Source of the DNA: Burkholderiales bacterium
GTDB lineage: Bacteria > Pseudomonadota > Gammaproteobacteria > Burkholderiales > Casimicrobiaceae
NCBI GenBank assembly: GCA_046347845.1
Contig: JAXMFH010000006.1
Span: forward strand, 48,482-112,481
Direction of reading: 5' to 3'
Length of the DNA: 64,000 nt
In this document: piece after piece, positions 1,437 to 36,460 of the stretch
Position numbering within the stretch: position 1 is the first letter of the stretch
Layout of the letters: each line of letters begins with the position of its first letter
Translations under genes and position numbers: made by a program
Notes under the pieces: model-generated
What the model was told of the DNA's origin: nothing
The model's input: the letters and a program-made list of their open reading frames with translations, nothing else
The model's database searches: none

Positions 1437-2408
1437 ATGGCGACCGACACGCACCTCCGCCAAGTCAGCGTCGAGCGGCTGGTGCTCGACAACCAGGAGC
1501 GCCTGGGCCTGCGCTGGGTCGCCGGGCGCGACGGCGGCAACCGCGTGCTCACCGGCGAGGCGGCGCTCAAGCCGACGGTGGGCCAGGTCGGCCACATGAA
1601 CTTCATCCACCCGTTCCGCGTGCAGCTCCTGGGCGCCGCGGAGATCGCGTACCTGAGGGGGCTGTCCGCCGGCGAGCTCGACGCGGCGATCGGGCGCCTG
1701 TTCGACGGCGATCTCGTCGCGATCGTCGTCGCGAACGGCGAGGAAGTGCCGCCGAACCTCGCCAGGAGCTGCGATGCGCACCACGTCCCGCTCCTGACCT
1801 CTTCGCAGCCCTCGCCGCACGTCGTCGACGTCTTCCGCCTCTACCTGTCGCGGGTGCTCGCCGAGTCGACGACGCTGCACGGCGTGTTCCTCGACGTGCT
1901 CGAGATGGGCGTGCTGATCACCGGCGCCTCCGCGATCGGCAAGAGCGAGCTCGCGCTCGAGCTCATCTCGCGCGGCAACGGGCTCGTCGCCGACGACATC
2001 GTCGAGCTCTACCGGATCTCGCCGGACACCGTCGAAGGCCGCTGCCCGCCGGTGCTGCGCGACTTCCTCGAGGTCCGCGGCATCGGCGTGCTCAACATCC
2101 GGACGATCTTCGGCGAGACCGCGGTGCGGCCGCGCAAGCTCCTCAAGCTGATCGTCCACCTCGAGGACCACAGCCACGAGGCGTTCTCCGACCTCGACCG
2201 GCTCAAGGTCGAGGCGAACTTCCAGGAGGTGCTCGGCGTGCCGGTGCGGCGGGTCACGATTCCCGTCGCGGCCGGCCGGAACCTGGCGGTGCTCGTCGAG
2301 GCGGCGGTCCGCAACTTCGTGCTGAACCAGCGCGGCATCGACAGCACGCTCGAGTTCATCGAGCGGCAGCAGAAGCTGATGGACGACCAGGGATCGGGCG
2401 TGGCCTGA
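1437..2408 (+). CDS. hprK: HPr kinase/phosphorylase
   Basis: Walker A GASAIGKSE, then LVADD and EVRGIG motifs typical of HprK. Confidence 0.9.
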   Translation: MATDTHLRQVSVERLVLDNQERLGLRWVAGRDGGNRVLTGEAALKPTVGQVGHMNFIHPFRVQLLGAAEIAYLRGLSAGELDAAIGRLFDGDLVAIVVANGEEVPPNLARSCDAHHVPLLTSSQPSPHVVDVFRLYLSRVLAESTTLHGVFLDVLEMGVLITGASAIGKSELALELISRGNGLVADDIVELYRISPDTVEGRCPPVLRDFLEVRGIGVLNIRTIFGETAVRPRKLLKLIVHLEDHSHEAFSDLDRLKVEANFQEVLGVPVRRVTIPVAAGRNLAVLVEAAVRNFVLNQRGIDSTLEFIERQQKLMDDQGSGVA

Positions 2409-4189: not shown

Positions 4190-4815
4190 TGCTCGGCGGC
4201 CTGTTCGGGTCCGGGCGCGCGGCGGCGTCGACGATCCCGCTGTTCCCGCTGCGCACCGTGCTGTTCCCGGGCGGCGTGCTGCCGCTCAAGGTCTTCGAGC
4301 AGCGCTACGTCGAGATGACCAAGCGCTGCATGAAGGAAGGCGTCCCGTTCGGCGTCGTGATGATCACGTCGGGCGACGAGGTCGCGACGCGCGGCGAGGC
4401 GCCGACGTTCGCGCCGCTCGGCACGCTCGCGACGATCACCGGCTGGGACATGCCCGAGCTCGGGATCCTGCACCTCGCCACCGAGGGACTGACGCGGTTC
4501 CGCGTGCGGGAGCACCGCGTGCGGCCCGACCGCCTCGTCGTCGCCGACGTCGTCGACATGCCGGCCGAGCCGCGCGTGCCGCTCCCCGCGGAGGCGGAGC
4601 CGCTCGCACGGCTCCTCGAGCTCATCGCCACGCGGGTCGGTCCGCAGAACTTCCCGGCCGAGCGCGACTATGCCGACGCCTCGTGGGTCGGGTACCGGCT
4701 CGCCGAGCTCCTGCCGCTGCCGCTGCCGATCAAGCAGAGCATGCTCGAGATCAACGACGCGGCCGTGCGCCTGCAGGTGCTGCGGACGTTCCTGCAGCAG
4801 CAGGGACTGTTGTAG
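4189..4815 (+). CDS. LON-peptidase N-terminal (substrate-binding) domain protein
   Basis: IPLFPLRTVLFPGGVLPLKVFEQRYVEM is the Lon N-domain signature. The ATG overlaps the ubiX TGA (ATGA). Confidence 0.8.
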   Translation: MLGGLFGSGRAAASTIPLFPLRTVLFPGGVLPLKVFEQRYVEMTKRCMKEGVPFGVVMITSGDEVATRGEAPTFAPLGTLATITGWDMPELGILHLATEGLTRFRVREHRVRPDRLVVADVVDMPAEPRVPLPAEAEPLARLLELIATRVGPQNFPAERDYADASWVGYRLAELLPLPLPIKQSMLEINDAAVRLQVLRTFLQQQGLL

Positions 4816-4974
4816 GCGGAAGGGGATCGGGAAGGGAGATTGGCGCATGCGGCGCGCATTGCCGCCGTTCGACGTTCCATCTCCGGTTTTCCATTCTCGA
4901 TTTTCCATTGACGATCCTCCCTCCCCCGCCCCCGTCTATAATTCCCCCTTCCGCTTCGACCCTCCCGCACCGCC

Positions 4975-6265: not shown

Positions 6266-7137
6266 GCCGGCGCGCCGCGTCGGGGGGAGGCTCGCGCGGC
6301 GAGCTTCGGGGGGGACTCCCCGCGCCCGCCGGGCCGTCCCAAGGGCGCGGCGCCCCCTCGGGGGGAGGCTCGCGCAGCGAGCTTCGGGGGGGACTCCCCG
6401 CGCCCGCCGGGCCGTCCCAAGGGCGCGGCGCCCCCTCGGGGGGAGGCTCGCGCAGCGAGCTTCGGGGGGGACTCCTCCGCCGTCCGGCGGCGCTCGTGCT
6501 CGACATGGACGGCACGCTGCTCGACACCGAGCCTCTCGCCGCGCGGGCGTGGGGCGAGGCGGCGGCCGCGCTCGGCCTCGAGTTCGACCCGGCGCTGCCG
6601 GTCCGCCTGATCGGGCGCGGATTCGCGGACTGCCGCGCGCTGATCGTCGAGCACCACGGCGAGGCCTATCCGACCGACCGCCTGATGTCCGGCTGGCACG
6701 CCGCCTACGACGCGATCGTCGAGCGCGAGGGGCTCGCGCTCAAGCCCGGCGTCGATGCGCTGTTCGCGTGGCTCGACGCCGAGGGGATCGCGCGCGCGGT
6801 CGCGACGTCGACGCGGCGCGAGCGCGCGCTCGCGAAGCTCTCGAAGGTCGCGCTCGCCCCGCGCCTGGACGCGCTGGTCGGCGGCGACGAGATCGCGCGG
6901 GGCAAGCCTGCGCCGGACATCTTCGTCGAGGCCGCCGCGCGGCTCGCCGTCGCGCCGTCGGACTGCGTCGTGCTCGAGGACTCCGACGCCGGCGCGCTCG
7001 GCGCGATCGCCGCGGGCATGGTCCCGATCGTGATCCCGGACCTGAAGCCGCCCTCGCCCGAGGTGCTGCGCTTCGGCCCCCTCGTCGTCGAATCGATCCA
7101 CGACGCGATCGCGCTGCTGGCGGACCTCCCCCGTTAG
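6262..7137 (+). CDS. HAD-superfamily hydrolase (beta-phosphoglucomutase-like phosphatase). The start is uncertain; the alternative is GTG 6496.
   Basis: HAD motif [11 protein letters not shown] and motif IV EDSDAG. ATG 6262 overlaps the ruvC TGA (ATGA) and reads in frame through the 78-bp repeats. The catalytic core begins at about 6496. Confidence 0.6.
6281..6476 (+). repeat. family A GC-rich palindromic unit, 2.5 tandem copies of 78 bp
   Basis: GGAGGCTCGCGC(G/A)GCGAGCTTCGGGGGGGACTCCCCGCGCCCGCCGGGCCGTCCCAAGGGCGCGGCGCCCCCTCGGGG repeats with period 78 (GACTCC at 6314, 6392, 6470). Confidence 0.85.
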
Positions 7138-8956: not shown

Positions 8957-9369
8957 GCGGGCGCGGCCGACCCTTCGCGTTCCCGGTCCGCGTCTACTAC
9001 GAGGACACCGACGCCGCCGGCGTCGTCTACTACGCGAACTACCTCAGGTTCATGGAGCGCGCCCGCACCGAGTGGCTCGACGCGCATGGAGTGCCCCTCG
9101 CGGAACTCGAGCGCGCGCACGGCGTCGTATTCGTCGTGACGCGGGCCGAGATCGACTTCAGGGGCGCGGCCCGGCTGGGCGACCGGCTCGAGGCCACCGT
9201 CGCGTTCGAGCCGTCCGGGCGCGCGCAGATGGTCGCGCGCCAGAGCGTGCGGCGCGGTGGCGAAGTCCTCGTCGAGGGCGTCGTCCGCCTCGCGTGCCTC
9301 GCGCGCGAAGGCTGGAAGCCCGCGCGCGTCCCCCGCGAGCTCGCCTGCCTGATGGAGAAGCCGACGTGA
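8953..9369 (+). CDS. ybgC: tol-pal associated acyl-CoA thioesterase YbgC
   Basis: [27 protein letters not shown] is the 4HBT hot-dog signature. The ATG overlaps the ruvB TGA, and the gene precedes tolQ. Confidence 0.85.
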
Positions 9370-10034
9370 ACGTGCATGCCGACCTGTCGTTCGTCGCGAT
9401 GGTCGCGAACGCGTCGATCGTCGTCCAGGCCGTGATGGCGCTGCTCGCGGCGCTGTCGCTCTGGAGCTGGTGGCAGATCTTCCAGAAGCTGTTCCAGCTC
9501 TCGGCCGCGAAGCGCGACGCCGACCGCTTCGAGGACGAGTTCTGGAAGGGCGGCGACCTGGCCGAGCTCTACCAGAAGGCCTCGCAGTCGCGCAACGGCG
9601 GCGGTCTCGAGCACATCTTCACGGCGGGCTTCCGCGAATTCGCGAAGCACCGCCGGCAGGGAAGCTCGTCGACGCTCACGCTCGACGCGGCGCGCCGCGC
9701 GATGCGCGCCGCGTTCCAGCGCGAGATCGACTCGCTGGAGGCGCATCTCGCGGGCCTCGCGAGCGTCGGCTCGGTGTCGCCCTACGTCGGCCTGTTCGGG
9801 ACCGTGTGGGGGATCATGAACGCGTTCCGCTCCCTCTCGAACGTCGCGCAGGCGACGCTCGCGCAGGTCGCGCCCGGCATCGCGGAGGCGCTCGTCGCGA
9901 CCGCCATGGGCCTGTTCGCCGCGATCCCGGCGGTCGTCGCGTACAACCGCTACACGCACGACGTCGACCGGCTCGCCACGCGTTACGAGACGTTCATCGA
10001 GGAGTTCAGCAACATCCTGCAGAGGCAGGGGTGA
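9366..10034 (+). CDS. tolQ: Tol-Pal system protein TolQ
   Basis: MotA/TolQ/ExbB channel family (GSVSPYVGLFGTVWGIMNAF...IAEALVATAMGL). The GTG start overlaps the ybgC stop. Confidence 0.9.
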   Translation: MNVHADLSFVAMVANASIVVQAVMALLAALSLWSWWQIFQKLFQLSAAKRDADRFEDEFWKGGDLAELYQKASQSRNGGGLEHIFTAGFREFAKHRRQGSSSTLTLDAARRAMRAAFQREIDSLEAHLAGLASVGSVSPYVGLFGTVWGIMNAFRSLSNVAQATLAQVAPGIAEALVATAMGLFAAIPAVVAYNRYTHDVDRLATRYETFIEEFSNILQRQG

Positions 10035-10237
10035 CAGGAGTCAGGAGTCAGTTGGCAGTTGACAGCGGCGCCGGTGTTTCCCGGGGCTGCGCATCGAGCG
10101 CAGCTGGAAGGTCCGCCAGGCGAAATGGCGTCAACGTACTCCTCGACTTGAACGGGCTCGTCGGCGCTCGACGCGCCGCCACCGGAAACGCTGCCGCGAC
10201 TGTCAACTGCCAACTGACTCCTGACTCCTGACTCCTG
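10035..10237. repeat. MITE-like hairpin element, family B copy 2
   Basis: Left arm 10035-10065 CAGGAGTCAGGAGTCAGTTGGCAGTTGACAG. Right arm 10200-10230 is its perfect 31-nt reverse complement, followed by an extra ACTCCTG. It starts at the nt after the tolQ TGA and ends 5 nt before the tolR GTG. Confidence 0.9.
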
Positions 10238-10242
10238 ATCCC

Positions 10243-10656
10243 GTGCGCCGCCCCCGCAAGAGCATGAGCCAGATCAACGTCGTGCCCTACATCGACGTGA
10301 TGCTGGTGCTGCTCGTGATCTTCATGGTCACGGCGCCGCTGATCACGCCCGGCGAGATCGCGCTGCCGTCGGTGGGCGCGAAGCTCACGGCGCCGGTCGC
10401 GCCGCTCGAGGTGACGCTGCGCAACGACCAGTCGCTGTGGCTGCGCGACCAGGGCGCGCCCGGCACCTCGGCCGTGAAGGTGTCGCGCGACGAGCTCGTC
10501 GCACGCGTCGTCGCGAAGCAGGCGCGCGCGCCCGATCAGGGCGTCGTGATCGCGGCGGACAAGTCGGCGCGCTACGAGGACGTGCTCTCGGTGCTCGACG
10601 TGCTCCAGCGCAACGGCGTGCGCAAGGTCGGCCTGCTCGCGCGGGGTCCGCAGTAG
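10243..10656 (+). CDS. tolR: Tol-Pal system protein TolR (ExbD family)
   Basis: SQINVVPYIDVMLVLLVIFMVTAP is the ExbD/TolR TM signature. Confidence 0.9.
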   Translation: MRRPRKSMSQINVVPYIDVMLVLLVIFMVTAPLITPGEIALPSVGAKLTAPVAPLEVTLRNDQSLWLRDQGAPGTSAVKVSRDELVARVVAKQARAPDQGVVIAADKSARYEDVLSVLDVLQRNGVRKVGLLARGPQ

Positions 10657-11535: not shown

Positions 11536-12068
11536 CGCGCGCTTCGGGGGGATCACCCGCGCCCGCCGGGCCGCCCCAGGGGCGCGGCGCCCCCTCGGGG
11601 GGAGGCTCGCGCAGCGAGCTTCGGGGGGATCACCCGCGCCCGCCGGGCCGCCCCGGGGCGCGGCGCCCCCTCGGGGGAGGCCGCGCAGCGGCTTCGGGGA
11701 TCACCCGCGCCCGCCGGGCCGCCCGGGCGCGGCGCCCCCTCGGGGGAGGCTCGCGCAGCGAGCTTCGGGGATCACCCGCGCCCGCCGGGCCGCCCCGGCG
11801 CGGCGCCCCTCGGGGGAGGCTGCGCAGCGGCTTCGGGGACACCCGCGCCCGCCGGGCCGCCCCGGGCGCGGCGCCCCTCGGGGGAGGCTCGCGCAGCGAG
11901 CTTCGGGGGGATCACCCGCGCCCGCCGGGCCGCCCCAAGGGCGCGGCGCCCCCTCGGGGGGAGGCTCGCGCAGCGAGCTTCGGGGGGATCACCCGCGCCC
12001 GCCGGGCCGCCCCAAGGGCGCGGCGCCCCCTCGGGGCGAGGCTCGCGCAGCGAGCTTCGGGGGGATCA
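11536..12068 (+). repeat. tandem array of family A units (about 7.5 copies, period 68-77 bp)
   Basis: GATCACCC landmarks at 11551, 11628, 11699, 11770, 11838, 11910, 11987 and 12064. The array occupies the whole gap between convergent tolA and the 563-aa gene. No unique spacers. Confidence 0.9.
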
Positions 12069-13757
12069 CATCACGCGGGGCTTCTTCTCGAGGATCTGGA
12101 TGGTCGCCCAGCTCCACTCGGCCCGCTGCTCGACGAGGTGGCGCAGCGCGACCGTGTAGACCGACCGGCCGGTCATCAGCACGACCGAGCGGCCGTCCGA
12201 GTATTCGGAGGTCGGGACGATCAGCGTCTTGACCGAGAGCGGCTTGTCGGGGCGCGACGGCGGGGGCAGGTAGATGCCCTCGAACCGGGCACCCATCGTG
12301 CCGACGTCGATCCCGTTGACGACGAAGCCCATGTCCTCGCGCGCCTCGCGCCGCGTGTAGAGCGTCACCGGCACGAAGCGCTCGGCGATGATCGAGACGC
12401 CGGCCTCGACCTCCTCGACGCTGACCTTGTTGAGCCGCCGCACGACGCCGAGGACCCAGTCGGACACGTCGCTCTGCCGCACCGCGACGAGCCCGCCGAG
12501 CGCGAGGCTCTGGCCGATGCCGCCCGACGCGGCGATGCGCAGCCCCGCGACGCTGCGGTCCTTGACCTGCCACATCGGGTCCGAATACGACGCGAGGCTC
12601 GCGACCAGCGAGTCGTTCTCGTCGTGGGCCGGGCGCCGCGCGCGGGGCGTGTCGGCAACCGCGTAGACCTCGATCTGCTCGCCTCCCGGCTCGGGCGCGG
12701 CGTCGGAGGCCTCCTTCGTGGCGAGCTCGTGGCAGATGCGGCCCAGGCCGATGCGCACGCGCGCCGACACCTTGCAGGCGATGCGGGCGTCGCGCCGCAG
12801 GTCGGTCAGCACGTTCGGCGCCACCGACGGGCGCACCTTGTCGAGGATGGCGGCGCGCTGCTGGTTGATCGGCGCGGCCGGCCCGAAGTCGGTCGTTTCC
12901 GCCTGGCGCAGCGACGCGATCGCGCGGTCGATCTGGTCGGCGAGCGGCGAGGTGTCGAGGTAGCGGAGCATCGAGCCGGAATCGTTGCCGGTGCGCCGCT
13001 GCAGCCCGGTCCGCCCGGCGATGTCGACGAAGAATCCTTCCGGCGAGCGGGGCACCGCGTCGAGCTCGAGCCGCCGGCTCCAGGCGCGCAGCTGCGAGCA
13101 GGCCCAGTCGATCTCGGCGGGCGTCATGTTGCCGGTGTTGAGCTGGTGGACGAGCAGCGTGTACAGGTACTCCTGCTCCATCGACCACGCCGTCGCGTTC
13201 GGCGCGGCGCCGGCGAGCGTCGTCGGGATGCGCTCGACGGCGAGCTCCGTGGCGCGCAGGAACGAGCGGTGGAGCTCGGCCCACTTCGCCGGGATCCAGC
13301 GCTCGTAGCGGAACACGCGGAGCTTCGCGTCGGTGCCGGCGTAGTGCGTGTGGCGCGCGAACAGCATCGGGACGAGCGGCTTCCAGCGCGCGTTGCCCGG
13401 CTGCGACAGTCCTTCCTCGAGCGACGCCTGGTAGGCGGTCATGAAGCCCTGCGTCATCTCGTAGATCGCCTGCCACAGGCGCTCGGCGAGCTTCGGTCCG
13501 GTCTCGACGTTCTCGACGTACTGCTTGATCAGCTGGCGGCGGTCGGTCCCCAGCGAAGCGTCGAGGTACTGGATCGCCAGGACCCGGGCGGGGTCGACGG
13601 GCTTGCGCGACAGGCGCATGCCGTCGAACGCGCGCATGACGTGCTGCTGCCTGCCGATGACGTCGAGCGCGGGCAGCTGGCGGAGCCAGGCCGACACGGA
13701 CTTGACCGACACGAGCGGGTCGGTCGTGTCCTTGCTCGTTGTCAGGAATTCGAACAT
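12066..13757 (-). CDS. conserved hypothetical protein with a possible C-terminal PilZ-like domain
   Basis: 563-aa ORF starting [10 protein letters not shown] (ATG at 13757), with coding-like composition. Contains RRDAR (RxxxR) and DRSVAG (DxSxxG) motifs. Confidence 0.7.
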
Positions 13758-30205: not shown

Positions 30206-30555
30206 CGAAGTCCGCCAGACCGTCGCTGCCTCCGCCTTCGGGCGGAGGGAGAGGAAAGTCCGGGCTCCAGAGAGCAGGATGCCGGGTAACGCCCGGCCGC
30301 AGCAGCCGCGGCTTCGCCGCCGCGGTCAAGGCGAGGAACAGGGCCACAGAGACGAGTCGCTCCCAGCCGTAGGGGAGCGGGTGAAACGCGGCAACCTCCA
30401 TCCGGAGCAACGCCAAGTAGGCGGACCATGACGCTGCTCGCGTCGTCCGCGGGTAGGCGGCTCGAGCCCCCCGGCAACGGCGGGCCTAGAGGAATGACGG
30501 CCATAGCGCACCTTCGGGGGCGCCGTAACAGAACCCGGCTTACCGGCGGACTTCG
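30206..30555 (+). ncRNA. rnpB: RNase P RNA, bacterial type A
   Basis: Conserved GAGGAAAGTCCGGGCTCCA (P4 5' strand) and ACAGAACCCGGCTTA (P4 3' strand). The P1 helix pairs CGAAGTCCGCC 30206-30216 with GGCGGACTTCG 30545-30555. Confidence 0.85.
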
Positions 30556-30569
30556 ACTTATTCCGTATT

Positions 30570-30636
30570 CCGGGGTCAGATTCGCCTCCGACCCCGATCT
30601 CCCTCCGGGGTCGGAGGCGAATCTGACCCCGGTTTT
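30570..30636 (+). terminator. 27-bp perfect hairpin plus T4 after rnpB (family C GGGGTCAGATTCG element)
   Basis: 30570-30596 CCGGGGTCAGATTCGCCTCCGACCCCG pairs perfectly with 30606-30632. 9-nt loop, followed by TTTT. Confidence 0.6.
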
Positions 30637-34092: not shown

Positions 34093-35421
34093 ATGTCGTC
34101 GATGACGCCGCAGGAGATCGTCTCCGAGCTCGACAAGCACATCGTCGGGCAGCACGACGCCAAGCGCGCGGTCGCGATCGCGCTGCGCAACCGTTGGCGG
34201 CGGCAGCAGGTCCCCGACCCGCTGCGCGGCGAGATCACGCCGAAGAACATCCTGATGATCGGGCCCACGGGCGTGGGCAAGACCGAGATCGCGCGCCGGC
34301 TCGCCCGCCTCGCCGACGCCCCGTTCATCAAGGTCGAGGCGACCAAGTTCACCGAGGTCGGCTACGTCGGGCGCGACGTGGACACGATCGTGCGCGACCT
34401 GATCGACGTCGCGGTCAAGCAGACGCGGGAGGCCGAGGCGCGCAAGGTGCGCGACCGCGCGGCCGACGCCGCCGAGGAGCGCCTCCTCGACGTGCTGCTG
34501 CCGCCGGCGCGCGAGGTGAACTTCCACGACATGCAGCCGGCCGACTCCGCGACGCGGCAGAAATTCCGCAAGATGCTGCGCGAGGGCCGGCTCGACGACA
34601 AGGACGTCGAGATCGAGGTGGCGGCGCCGCAGCCGTCGATGGAGATCATGGCGCCGCCGGGCATGGAGGACCTCACCGCGCAGATCCAGGGCATGTTCCA
34701 GCAGATGTCGGGCGGCCGCCGCAAGGTCCAGCGCATGAAGGTCGCCGACGCGATGAAGGCGCTCACCGACGAGGAGGCCGCGAAGCTCGTCAGCGAGGAC
34801 GACATCAAGGCGAAGGCGCTCGCCTCGGTCGAGCAGAACGGCATCGTGTTCCTCGACGAGATCGACAAGATCGCCTCGCGCTCCGACCTGCACGGCGCCG
34901 ACGTTTCGCGCCAGGGCGTGCAGCGCGACCTGCTGCCGCTCGTCGAGGGCACGACCGTGTCGACCAAGTACGGGATGGTGCGCACCGACCACGTCCTGTT
35001 CATCGCGTCGGGCGCGTTCCACCTGTCGAAGCCCTCGGACCTGATCCCCGAGCTGCAGGGCCGCTTCCCGATCCGCGTCGAGCTCGCCTCGCTCACGGTC
35101 GCCGACTTCGAGCAGATCCTGACCGCGACCGACGCCTGCCTCGTGCGCCAGTACGAGGCGCTGCTGCGCACCGAGAACGTCGAGCTCGAGTTCCGGCCCG
35201 ACGCGATCCGCCGGATCGCCGAGATCGCGCACGCGGTGAACGAGAAGCAGGAGAACATCGGCGCCCGGCGGCTCTACACGGTGATGGAGCGCCTGCTCGA
35301 GGAGATCTCGTACTCGGCGACCCACCACGACCGCGAGACGATCGCGATCGACGCCGCGTACGTGGACGCGCGGCTCGCGGGGATCGCGGGGGACGACAAC
35401 CTGGCGAAGTACATTCTCTAG
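34093..35421 (+). CDS. hslU: ATP-dependent protease ATPase subunit HslU
   Basis: [34 protein letters not shown]...[15 protein letters not shown]...FLDEIDKI. Confidence 0.95.
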
Positions 35422-35425
35422 GGGG

Positions 35426-35584
35426 CAGGAGTCAGGAGTCAGTTGGCAGGAGTCAGTTGGAGCCCCGCCCACCGTGGCGAAACGTGGACCCGGCAGGACT
35501 CCGCCGTACCTCCTCCGGTTCTTGGGCCACGATGCGCCCGTTGCGCGCCCTCAATGACTCCTGCCAACTGACTCCTGACTCCTG
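35426..35584. repeat. MITE-like hairpin element, family B copy 3
   Basis: Left arm 35426-35454 CAGGAGTCAGGAGTCAGTTGGCAGGAGTC. Right arm 35556-35584 is its perfect reverse complement. It begins 4 nt after the hslU TAG and ends at the nt before ATG 35585. Confidence 0.9.
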
Positions 35585-36460
35585 ATGCTCGACCGCCTCC
35601 TCGGCATCATCCTCCCGGTGTTCGCCGTCGTCGCGCTCGGCTGGTTCTGGGGCCGCCGCGCGAAGCCGGACATGTCGGTGGTCAACCGGCTGTCGATGAA
35701 CGTGCTCGCGCCGGCGCTCATCTTCTCGGCGCTCGCGTCCAAGTCGTTCGACCTGTGGGAGAACCGGCTGCTGATCGCGGGCAGCGTCGGCATCGTGCTG
35801 GGCTCGGGGCTGCTCGCGTGGCCGTTCGCGAAGCTCCTGCACGAGGACCACCGCACGTTCGTGCCGCCGATGATGTTCAACAACTGCGGCAACCTCGGGC
35901 TCCCGCTCGCGGTGCTCGCGTTCGGCGACGCGGGCTTCACCGCGATGGTCGCGCTGTTCACGATCAGCAACCTCCTGCACTTCACGCTGGGCGTCTGGAT
36001 CATCGATCACCACGCGCGGTTCGGGAACCTGCTGCGCAATCCGATGGTGTGGTCGACGGTGGCCGGCTTCGCTTTCGCGGTCGTGCACCCGCCGATGCCG
36101 GAGGTCGCGACGGTGACCCTGAAGCTCGTCGGCGACGCGATGATCCCGCTGATGCTCCTGTCGCTGGGCGTGCGCATGACCGCGATCCGCTGGTCCGACG
36201 CGCGGCTCGGCGTCATCGGCGGCCTCGTGTGCCCGCTCACCGGCCTCGCGTGCGCCGGGCTGCTGGCGCCGGTGCTGGGCCTCGACGCGCAGCAGACCGG
36301 GCTCCTGTTCCTGTTCGGCTGCCTGCCGCCCGCCGTGCTCAACTTCATGGTCGCCGAGCAGTTCCGCCAGGAGCCGGCGAAGGTCGCGTCGATCGTGCTG
36401 ATCGGCAATGCGATGTCGGTGCTGTTCGTGCCGGTCGGCCTCGTGATCGCGCTGCCCTGA
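35585..36460 (+). CDS. AEC (auxin efflux carrier) family transporter
   Basis: Multi-TM protein MLDRLLGIILPVFAVVALGWF..., typical of the AEC/membrane transport family. Confidence 0.85.
   Translation: MLDRLLGIILPVFAVVALGWFWGRRAKPDMSVVNRLSMNVLAPALIFSALASKSFDLWENRLLIAGSVGIVLGSGLLAWPFAKLLHEDHRTFVPPMMFNNCGNLGLPLAVLAFGDAGFTAMVALFTISNLLHFTLGVWIIDHHARFGNLLRNPMVWSTVAGFAFAVVHPPMPEVATVTLKLVGDAMIPLMLLSLGVRMTAIRWSDARLGVIGGLVCPLTGLACAGLLAPVLGLDAQQTGLLFLFGCLPPAVLNFMVAEQFRQEPAKVASIVLIGNAMSVLFVPVGLVIALP

Follow-up and report, generated by a model that had tools for sequence, protein, structure and literature searches.

Tandem heptamers have been catalogued for decades in cyanobacteria. Mazel and colleagues are said to have described, in 1990, the short tandemly repeated repetitive (STRR) sequences of these organisms, with units including CCCCAGT and CAACAGT lying in tandem in the intergenic DNA of operons. 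Written with CAG first, these units read CAGTCCC and CAGTCAA. STRRs have served as typing markers and form direct arrays, and they are not known to have a defined hairpin element or core. Here, we examine a 203-bp element, built from CAG-first heptamers, that fills the junction between tolQ and tolR in a Burkholderiales bacterium (Casimicrobiaceae; contig JAXMFH010000006.1). The whole stretch analysed is 64,000 nucleotides long and is referred to as the window. We conclude that the element is a variant of heptamer repeats already described, yet unexplained, in other bacteria. In our estimation (roughly 60%), the segment is a copy of a dispersed palindromic repeat that lacks an open reading frame (ORF), resembles an intervening sequence (IVS) and is tolerated by folding out of the transcript.

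Rehm et al. (2015) reported GGGAATC heptamer repeats in Xanthomonas, at 186 and 183 sites, with 70-75 convergent pairs (PMC4692102). About 90% are intergenic, mostly between co-directional ORFs, and most are transcribed. The G-rich strand is found no more than 50 bp past stop codons, or antisense upstream of ORFs; the C-rich strand occurs before start codons. Some 90% of the repeats lie between the same genes in two species, with lengths that differ. For the GGGNATC repeats of Xanthomonas and Nostoc, G-quadruplexes were proposed and no function was established (PMC4692102). The supplements of that paper do not mention S23, tolQ or exbB. MacGregor (2015) described TAACTGA direct repeats in marine Beggiatoaceae, Cyanobacteria and Bacteroidetes (PMC4679880). 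These are in the forward orientation, a few nt 5' of start codons, and occupy the place where a ribosome-binding site would be expected. The phyla are scattered, the downstream genes share no functional theme, and a translational regulator was proposed (PMC4679880). A third described system is the 23S rRNA IVS of Leptospira and Coxiella, where an S23p/PF05635 ORF sits within a 28-bp terminal stem that is cut by RNase III (PMC4990558). Such an IVS is an insert in transcribed RNA, is sporadic, and is excised by RNase III, leaving the host RNA unharmed (PMC4990558).

The tolQ-tolR element and its sister copies

The layout of the junction, and of two sister copies in the window, is as follows.

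9366-10034, + strand: tolQ (MotA/ExbB family; Pfam PF01618, E 1.4e-38), with stop codon TGA at 10032-10034
10035-10065, + strand: left outer arm, four CAG-first heptamers plus CAG (CAGGAGT CAGGAGT CAGTTGG CAGTTGA CAG), from the sequence and from inverted-repeat and period-7 scans
10078-10099, + strand: left copy of the family core, TTCCCGGGGCTGCGCATCGAGC, differing at 3 positions from the reverse-complemented core consensus
10102-10163, + strand: variable central loop region, which differs from copy to copy
10166-10187, + strand: right copy of the family core, GCTCGACGCGCCGCCACCGGAA, with 1 mismatch; the core is a small hairpin, CGGCGC-TCGAY-GCGCCG
10200-10230, + strand: right outer arm, which matches the reverse complement of 10035-10065 perfectly by inverted-repeat comparison
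10231-10242, + strand: extra heptamer ACTCCTG (10231-10237) followed by ATCCC, read from the sequence
10243-10656, + strand: tolR (ExbD family; Pfam PF02472), GTG start at 10243, placed by Pfam, homologue lengths and empty-site genomes
2410-2635, + strand: sister copy between the hprK stop (2406-2408) and the rapZ ATG (2638); right core with 0 mismatches, fold z = -6.9
35426-35584, + strand: sister copy between the hslU TAG (35419-35421) and the ATG (35585) of a Mem_trans transporter gene; 30-nt perfect arms, decayed core, z = -7.8

An earlier note on this DNA, made from the letters alone, had described perfect 31-bp arms, built from heptamers, that fill the tolQ-tolR gap. We confirmed these coordinates to the base. 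The arms match with 0 mismatches, where 0 such matches were expected from 100 shuffles. Pairing extends inward from the arms, so that 10030-10101 and 10164-10235 (72 nt each) are 85% complementary. The folding check suggested in that note also gave a strong hairpin. The predicted RNA fold of the element has a dG of -147.9 kcal/mol (z = -9.4, compared with -6.9 and -7.8 for the sister copies). In this predicted fold, the extra right-arm heptamer pairs with CAGGGGT at 10026-10032, which comprises the last tolQ codons and the T of the stop. Hence, the stem would begin inside tolQ. All three frames are closed just 5' of tolR by four TGA triplets (10215-10238). The GTG start of tolR is backed by homologue lengths of 137-138 amino acids and by an identical codon in genomes that do not have the insert. 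An exact look-up of the window TolR gave no match; the closest TolR homologue is 96% identical, and the nearest named records are metagenome-assembled genomes (MAGs) labelled 'Burkholderiales/Betaproteobacteria bacterium'.

The two further copies claimed at stop-start junctions, hprK-rapZ and hslU-transporter, were also found as described. Together with the tolQ-tolR copy, they rank as the top three inverted repeats in the window. Nowhere else in its 64 kb, which have 72.9% G+C, does CAG-N4-CAG-N4-CAG or CTG-N4-CTG-N4-CTG occur. Tandem Repeats Finder detected a period of 7 at 10035-10051, 10214-10238, 2614-2636, 35426-35456 and 35555-35585, and a separate period-7 scan agreed. At hprK-rapZ, the heptamers are CAGGAAT, CAGGCAT, CGGAGGA and CAGGGAT, and the copy ends 2 nt before the rapZ ATG. 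The hslU-transporter copy begins 4 nt past the hslU TAG and abuts the transporter ATG. In all three window copies, and in most copies of the wider family described below, the G-rich strand lies just past a stop codon and the C-rich strand, as NNNCTGA, just before a start codon. The tolQ-tolR arms hold GG runs only, with no GGG tracts. They fall outside a G-quadruplex definition that asks for runs of 3 or more G in no fewer than 4 units; GGG does occur in the CAGGGAT and CAGGGGT units of other copies.

Several other identities were considered for the segment. A scan of 9700-10500 found no sigma-70 promoter and no intrinsic-terminator consensus. At the consensus level, this rejects an internal tolR promoter or terminator, and it is in line with the interpretation of the earlier note. 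An intrinsic terminator consists of a GC-rich stem and a U-tract, and the sequence after the right arm, ATCCCGTG, does not provide this arrangement. A small ORF, running from TTG 10052 to TGA 10231 (59 codons), is of a size expected by chance in 73% G+C DNA. An integron attC site was set aside because the units do not fit GTTRRRY and the neighbours are conserved housekeeping operons. A riboswitch or small RNA was rejected, as the loop is not conserved among copies. In a search of the window against Rfam 15 at the gathering score, the element had no match; the sole match was bacterial class A RNase P RNA (30207-30558, 203 bits). BLAST of the element against 72,556 plasmids returned no match, and the arm sequence, used as a literature text query, retrieved nothing relevant. 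The element does have terminal inverted repeats, small size, no ORF and multiple copies, as do MITEs (miniature inverted-repeat transposable elements). Similarly, an IVS is marked by terminal inverted repeats with a stem of at least about 20 bp, and the stem here is perfect over 31 bp, in a segment that is presumably transcribed.

The window contains other repeats. A separate family has a 77-nt GC-rich unit, present in 7.3 tandem copies right after the tolA stop (11537-12069) and again in 2.7 copies at 6272-6480. The RNase P RNA is followed, at 30570-30632, by an inverted repeat of 27 bp that is perfect and has a 9-nt loop. Between two genes, at 4815-4930, TTCCATTCTCGATT units with a period of 14 occur in a weak inverted G-rich/C-rich segment, followed by TCTATAAT. 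This may be a decayed element beside a promoter.

A repeat family with ends at gene boundaries

The tolQ-tolR and hprK-rapZ copies have inner sequence in common. A 22-nt stretch of this core, GCTCGAYGCGCCGCCACCGGAA, retrieved 30 metagenome loci, of which 28 had heptamer arrays and 2 were chance coding matches. From these we defined a half-element: the core hairpin CGGCGC-TCGAY-GCGCCG, then CCACCGGAAAC, about 8-11 variable bases, and an outward (NNNNCTG)n array of 3 to 19 or more units. On its 5' side an element has units of the form CAGNNNN, and on its 3' side NNNNCTG. A long hairpin results from two inverted halves, and solo halves also occur (L135, L136/L147, L141, L143, L146, L152; such labels denote genome or metagenome loci, including JGI, NCBI and ENA assemblies). 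Other copies are tandem or nested (L127, L133). Among copies, the unit may be CAGTTGA, CAGGAAT, CAGAGGA, CAGGGAT, CAGGTAT or CAGGTGA. Some family members come from Casimicrobiaceae MAGs. At the palindrome foot, where the core flanks read GGTGG-CGGCGC on one side and GCGCCG-CCACC on the other, there is neither a GTAG nor a CGTC tag.

Other sequences adjoin or fill some of these copies. In L155 (1-270, minus-strand view), a tandem unit of repetitive extragenic palindromic (REP) type, beginning GTCGGCCTGAAGGCCGACCCAC, adjoins a half-element. In L073 (1-400; a Casimicrobiaceae contig of 53% G+C), a repeated TAGGGGCGAAAAATTTTTCGCCCCTA hairpin precedes a long direct array of CCCTGGCTCCTGAT units. 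Hairpin interiors of 400-570 nt in L044 (4540-5200) and L100 hold nested repeats (GTGTTCATCT units) or decayed-looking ORFs, and these loops appear to serve as landing pads for other sequences.

We then compared two junctions between relatives.

L156: tolQ-tolR empty (TGA-CGCG-GTG); hprK-rapZ spacer of 37 nt
L157: tolQ-tolR empty (TAG-CGCGCC-GTG)
L001: tolQ-tolR insert of 209 nt; hprK-rapZ insert present
L003: tolQ-tolR insert of 134 nt; hprK-rapZ insert present
L002: tolQ-tolR insert of 96 nt
L139: tolQ-tolR insert present
L158: tolQ-tolR insert of 254 nt; hprK-rapZ insert present

The tolQ-tolR spacer is only 4-6 nt in related genomes. Hence, the window copy is an insertion. Empty sites of this kind had been sought as a check, and together with the copies and folds they bear out the earlier description of a multicopy, ORF-less, hairpin-forming inserted element. 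Across the window, L001, L139, L003, L002 and L158, inserts range from 96 to 254 nt and their heptamers differ by locus (CAGAGGA/CAGATGA in L001, CAGTTGT/CAGTTGA in L139, AGGGCGT/AGATAGG in L003, GGATCNN in L158). By identity of HprK, RapZ and RuvB, L158 is the most distant of the compared genomes and L156 and L157 are intermediate. Since the outgroup is filled and the empty genomes are intermediate, either the two junctions gained inserts repeatedly, or gain was followed by loss with fast turnover. Filled and empty sites share no consistent target-site duplication. Two copies have TGA or TGAA at both ends, but this is part of the heptamer unit itself. Thus, the comparison with MITEs and Correia elements made in the earlier note holds as an analogy only.

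Fold-back chimeras in some library types can yield perfect long inverted repeats, and a chimeric or fold-back join could in principle have made the perfect arms. We regard the chance of such an artefact as practically nil. Three copies lie in one window, at gene boundaries and with flanking genes intact. Furthermore, independent JGI, NCBI and ENA assemblies fill the same junctions and carry the family core.

Insertion may alter the flanking genes. In the hairpin-bearing loci, HprK ends in DDQGSGVA or DQGSGVG (window 2385-2408, L001 1870-1895, L003 2285-2310). The ending is DEGG or DES in L156 (2255-2271; no hairpin) and L158 (1810-1826; hairpin of unrelated heptamers). The insert seems to have rewritten the hprK end and supplied a new stop, the added codons being heptamer-like. 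Starts of tolR were compared in the window (10243), L001, L003 and L158 (10001), L002 (233), L139, and L156 and L157 (about 9980). The start is ATG in five of the six filled tolQ-tolR sites, GTG in the window, and GTG in both empty sites. At the empty sites of L156 and L157, the Shine-Dalgarno (SD)-like sequence of tolR (AGGGA or AGGGG) lies inside the tolQ end.

Placement was read manually from the outward flanks and the counts are approximate; an automatic gene-end caller, based on G+C content at third codon positions, missed obvious cases. Of about 48 element ends, about 38 overlap a start codon, a stop codon or a tRNA end, or come no further than 8 nt from one. Start codons are abutted by about 18 ends. 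CTG-ATG junctions are found in L030, L138 and the hslU-transporter copy, and CTGAA-ATG junctions at rapZ, tolR of L001 and sspB of L148; the ATG is inside the last array units in L134 and L140. In 13 of 16 start-abutting copies, the TGA of the last heptamer is at -1 to +4 nt from the start codon. About 19 ends abut a stop codon, and in L129, L133, L150 and L142 the array contains the final codons of the gene together with its stop. Entry of an element into a spacer of few nucleotides would lead to such flush placement.

The earlier note had proposed that such elements are restricted to junctions within operons. This proposal failed, since copies also occur between convergent genes (L003 at 13.9 kb, and L142), in a tRNA-Tyr/tRNA-Gly spacer (L149), 5' of first genes and past terminator-like hairpins (L136/L147, L152), and as solo halves. 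The rule for the family is that its ends are flush with gene ends. The same note had stated that tolR has no free SD. Indeed, none is present next to the start, nor before rapZ and the transporter gene. However, ptsN, hprK, ruvB and tolA likewise have no obvious SD, as do about half of the well-placed window genes checked. Because SD-less starts are common in the window, the missing tolR SD carries little weight.

To compare RNA- and DNA-level origins of the arms, 18 elements were oriented by their flanking genes and both strands were folded. The mean difference in dG, sense minus antisense, was +2.4 kcal/mol, with 6 of 18 elements more stable in the sense orientation (Wilcoxon p = 0.44). If an mRNA stem were under selection, G-U should be preferred to A-C on the strand that is transcribed. 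We counted 81 G-U pairs in the sense folds and 111 in the antisense folds. The comparison is flat, and compensatory selection at the RNA level is unsupported. The arms do co-vary: in 12 full elements, 84.7% of cells are paired, compared with 79.3% when arms are swapped between copies (0 of 500 shuffles reach the observed value), and double changes number 55 cells, compared with 31 expected. Conversely, some arms are mismatched by unit type, with a CAGAGGA arm facing a CAGTTGA arm in L154, and CAGTTGA facing CAGTTGT in L139. Arrays change fast in unit number and sequence, sometimes independently in each arm. Taken together, the flat strand comparison, the arm mismatches and the variation in unit number point to heptamer slippage and palindrome copying at the DNA level. 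We infer that processes acting on the DNA, and not selection for mRNA structure, produce and maintain the arms.

Polarity across phyla and the PF05635 genes

We scanned one genome per species with CAGGAGTCAGGAGTCAG and obtained at least 120 loci. The matches listed are from Cyanobacteria (many of them filamentous), Acidobacteriota, Planctomycetota, Verrucomicrobiota, Gemmatimonadota, Bacillota, Desulfobacterota and Casimicrobiaceae. Among these listed matches, a partner array within 600 nt had the arrangement 5'-(CAGGAGT)n...(ACTCCTG)n-3' in 30 cases and the reverse in 0. Examples from many phyla have the same layout, between a stop or start codon and the next gene, with lineage-specific loops, and the close units CAGGAGT, CAGGAAT and CAGGGGT recur across phyla. 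In 79 viral contigs from IMG/VR (L182-L260), the CAG...CTG polarity was found 20 times and the opposite 0-2 times. These contigs carry CAGGAGT arrays and short-loop hairpins, some in many copies, as in the 13 kb of L197 with 9 matches.

One hairpin, in an Akkermansiaceae MAG (L060), encloses an ORF of 123 amino acids. The product matches PF05635 (23S_rRNA_IVP) with an E value of 1.7e-28 and also matches bAvd. At E <= 1e-10 there are over 7,900 candidate homologues, of which the top 120 share 74-100% identity. In every context retrieved, the PF05635 gene lies between two host genes. These are MotA_ExbB and ExbD genes in many contigs and unrelated genes in another. In Verrucomicrobia-like contigs (L159-L161, L165-L181), exbB and exbD are separated by a PF05635 gene of the four-helix-bundle type. 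At three independent sites in other phyla, a 5' array of CAGGAGT, CAGGAAT, CAGGAGA or CAGAGGG units runs from the upstream stop to the ATG of the ORF, and a 3' array of CCCCTGA or CCTCTGA units follows its stop. The last 5' heptamer acts as the SD of the PF05635 gene, as judged from sequences such as CAGGAGTCAGAAAATG. Contigs that encode an identical PF05635 protein differ in the 5' array, from 11 to 22 units, in the manner of variable-number tandem repeats. Long-range stems are predicted to pair the 5' and 3' arrays around the ORF.

These observations offer a reason for the polarity: the SD-like strand must be 5' of the ORF, and ORF-less palindromic derivatives would keep it in that position on both strands. 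The PF05635 genes at mRNA junctions share the architecture of the rRNA IVS, and their arms are heptamers of the type seen in the window. The window copies differ from the rRNA IVS in that they have no ORF (none of PF05635 type was found in the window), lie between protein genes and are not in rRNA helices; cutting by RNase III is here presumed. The window copies look like ORF-less relatives of the PF05635 elements, an architecture present at three sites and extrapolated to the family.

Comparison with known repeats and competing explanations

The earlier note recognised no described family in the element, and this was half right. Tandem 7-nt units, inverted pairs able to form stem-loops, and the same polarity and position at gene ends are all published (PMC4692102, PMC4679880). 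Written in the CAG register, the Xanthomonas unit becomes CGGGAAT, which differs at a single base from CAGGAAT in the hprK-rapZ copy and which itself occurs in L134. As in Xanthomonas, positions are kept between species while length and sequence vary. Conversely, the Xanthomonas and Nostoc repeats are defined as G-quadruplex-forming, and the tolQ-tolR arms lack the tracts for this. Neither the inner core, nor the organisation in solo halves and doublets, nor the overlap with starts and stops, nor the PF05635 link has been reported for those repeats (PMC4692102). The taxa also differ, being Gammaproteobacteria and Cyanobacteria for the published repeats and uncultured Burkholderiales for the family here. 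The TAACTGA repeats share the NNNCTGA form (CAGTTAT on the other strand) and the position just before starts. Unlike the hairpin family, they comprise 169 direct sets and one indirect repeat, with a single unit sequence and no core.

Other dispersed elements provide looser parallels. REPs, and their inverted doublets known as REPINs, are short palindromes that are extragenic, multicopy and lineage-specific (Bertels and Rainey 2011, PMC3116915). The family is alike in these respects, and its core is an imperfect palindrome in the 20-40-nt range found as singlets and inverted doublets. Unlike REPs, the family lacks the GTAG/CGTC tag, no gene for a REP-associated tyrosine transposase (RAYT) was seen beside its copies, and it has outer heptamer arrays. 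With Correia elements and MITEs it shares a length of 100-250 bp, terminal inverted repeats, the lack of an ORF and, presumably, co-transcription with neighbouring genes. Unlike them, it has no TA or other target duplication and no known parent insertion sequence, and its arms are heptamers in variable number instead of a fixed terminal repeat. Mycobacterial interspersed repetitive units (MIRUs), according to work attributed to Supply and colleagues in 1997, reportedly sit in the intercistronic gaps of operons with ends that overlap stop and start codons. They are direct tandem units of 40-100 bp with small coupled ORFs, unlike heptamer-built hairpins.

How might such an insert be tolerated? 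Given that no promoter or terminator consensus was found, and that empty sites have just 4-6 nt between tolQ and tolR, the element is presumably co-transcribed with tolQ and tolR. In the RNA, the perfect 31-bp stem, extended to about 70 bp, would fold the insert out and bring the tolQ stop and tolR start together at the helix base. A perfect stem of 31 bp is a standard RNase III substrate, and Correia hairpins are also RNase III substrates. The element would most likely be handled like the 23S rRNA IVS, that is, extruded and then cut out or cut through. Such handling would explain tolerance flush against gene ends, and the insert would probably be close to neutral.

A wider proposal is possible, and we advance it tentatively, as a suggestion that may well prove wrong. 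The heptamer-armed hairpins would be the ORF-less form of a single cross-phylum class of IVS that acts at the RNA level. The ORF-bearing form would have a PF05635 (23S rRNA IVS protein/Avd-like) gene translated from SD-like 5' heptamers, which would fix the 5'-CAG...CTG-3' polarity. Stop-start junctions (notably exbB/tolQ-exbD/tolR), tRNA spacers and rRNA helices would be colonised because host RNase III removes the elements. The cyanobacterial, Xanthomonas and Beggiatoaceae heptamer repeats could belong to the same class.

Three other explanations for the heptamer hairpins have to be weighed. The elements could be selfish DNA of REPIN or MITE type, moved in trans by a RAYT-like HUH or a DDE transposase that reads the core hairpin or the heptamer ends, with no role for RNA. 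A dispersed family with a conserved core hairpin, arranged in singlets and inverted doublets as REPs and REPINs are, would fit this, as would the strict polarity of the ends and the patchy occupation among relatives. Yet the core has no adjacent GTAG or CGTC tag, there is no consistent target-site duplication or neighbouring transposase gene, and classical transposition does not predict ends that overlap start or stop codons. We consider this account doubtful. Alternatively, the hairpin could be an adaptive coupling device or shunt: by joining the tolQ stop to the tolR start, it would allow ribosomes to reinitiate on the SD-less tolR and would set the TolQ:TolR ratio. The stop and start do lie at the stem base, with the start codon unpaired in the minimum free energy structure. 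In empty-site genomes tolR is 4-6 nt past the tolQ stop with its SD-like sequence in the tolQ end, and a hairpin would restore this proximity; the TGA of the last heptamer close to most abutted starts is also in keeping with coupling. The best argument is that the same two junctions are filled in several lineages, including the outgroup with unrelated heptamers. Coupling is, however, meaningless between convergent or tRNA genes, after terminator-like hairpins and for solo halves. Furthermore, the antisense strand folds as stably as the sense strand, some copies have arms that do not fully pair, starts without an SD are frequent in the window anyway, and relatives work with a 4-6-nt spacer. This explanation is unlikely.

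The arrays could also be regulatory simple-sequence repeats, tuning the flanking genes through G-quadruplexes, contingency-type length variation, or arrays of binding sites for a protein (Csp, S1, a CsrA-like protein or a PF05635 pentamer). There are published proposals of this sort, namely G-quadruplexes for GGGNATC (PMC4692102) and a translational regulator for TAACTGA (PMC4679880). Unit number is hypervariable between samples, and a conserved binding partner could explain why CAGGAGT, CAGGAAT and CAGGGGT recur across phyla. Set against this, the tolQ-tolR arms have GG runs and not GGG tracts, and unit sequences vary freely at orthologous sites. In addition, the flanking genes are housekeeping genes of unrelated function, as in the published surveys, and no binding protein was identified. 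Hence, regulation by the arrays seems very unlikely.

Our preferred reading, of an IVS-like repeat copy that is folded out of the transcript, also faces difficulties. Co-transcription, cutting by RNase III and any influence on the expression of tolR are all steps that we infer. The outgroup L158, with unrelated heptamers at both junctions, could mean that these junctions select for a hairpin, and so for function. As for the mechanism of spread, there is no target-site duplication common to the filled sites, and no transposase or RAYT gene was seen beside any copy in about 0.45 Mb. The same 0.45 Mb of related Burkholderiales DNA yielded no PF05635 gene. Among the 120 array-bearing genome loci listed, L060 alone had one, and the viral loci gave two weak matches, neither beside an array. 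The PF05635 sample is one clade with three insertion sites, and the family core has no visible relation to the PF05635 gene. The step that makes the window copies ORF-less relatives would thus draw on shared arm vocabulary, polarity and placement.

The window adds three points to the published record. In the Burkholderiales lineage, the arrays belong to a defined element, with a core hairpin and arrays in singlets and doublets; this element enters spacers only a few nucleotides long and can itself provide a start or stop codon. The polarity of the hairpin is strictly 5'-CAG...CTG-3' across phyla and viral contigs. Finally, the same arms enclose genes for PF05635 intervening-sequence proteins. 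For annotation, long 'intergenic' gaps within the conserved operons of such genomes are inserts and not promoters, and gene ends beside arrays may be rewritten, as at the HprK C-terminus. If the PF05635 link is general, the origin and function of heptamer repeats become testable.

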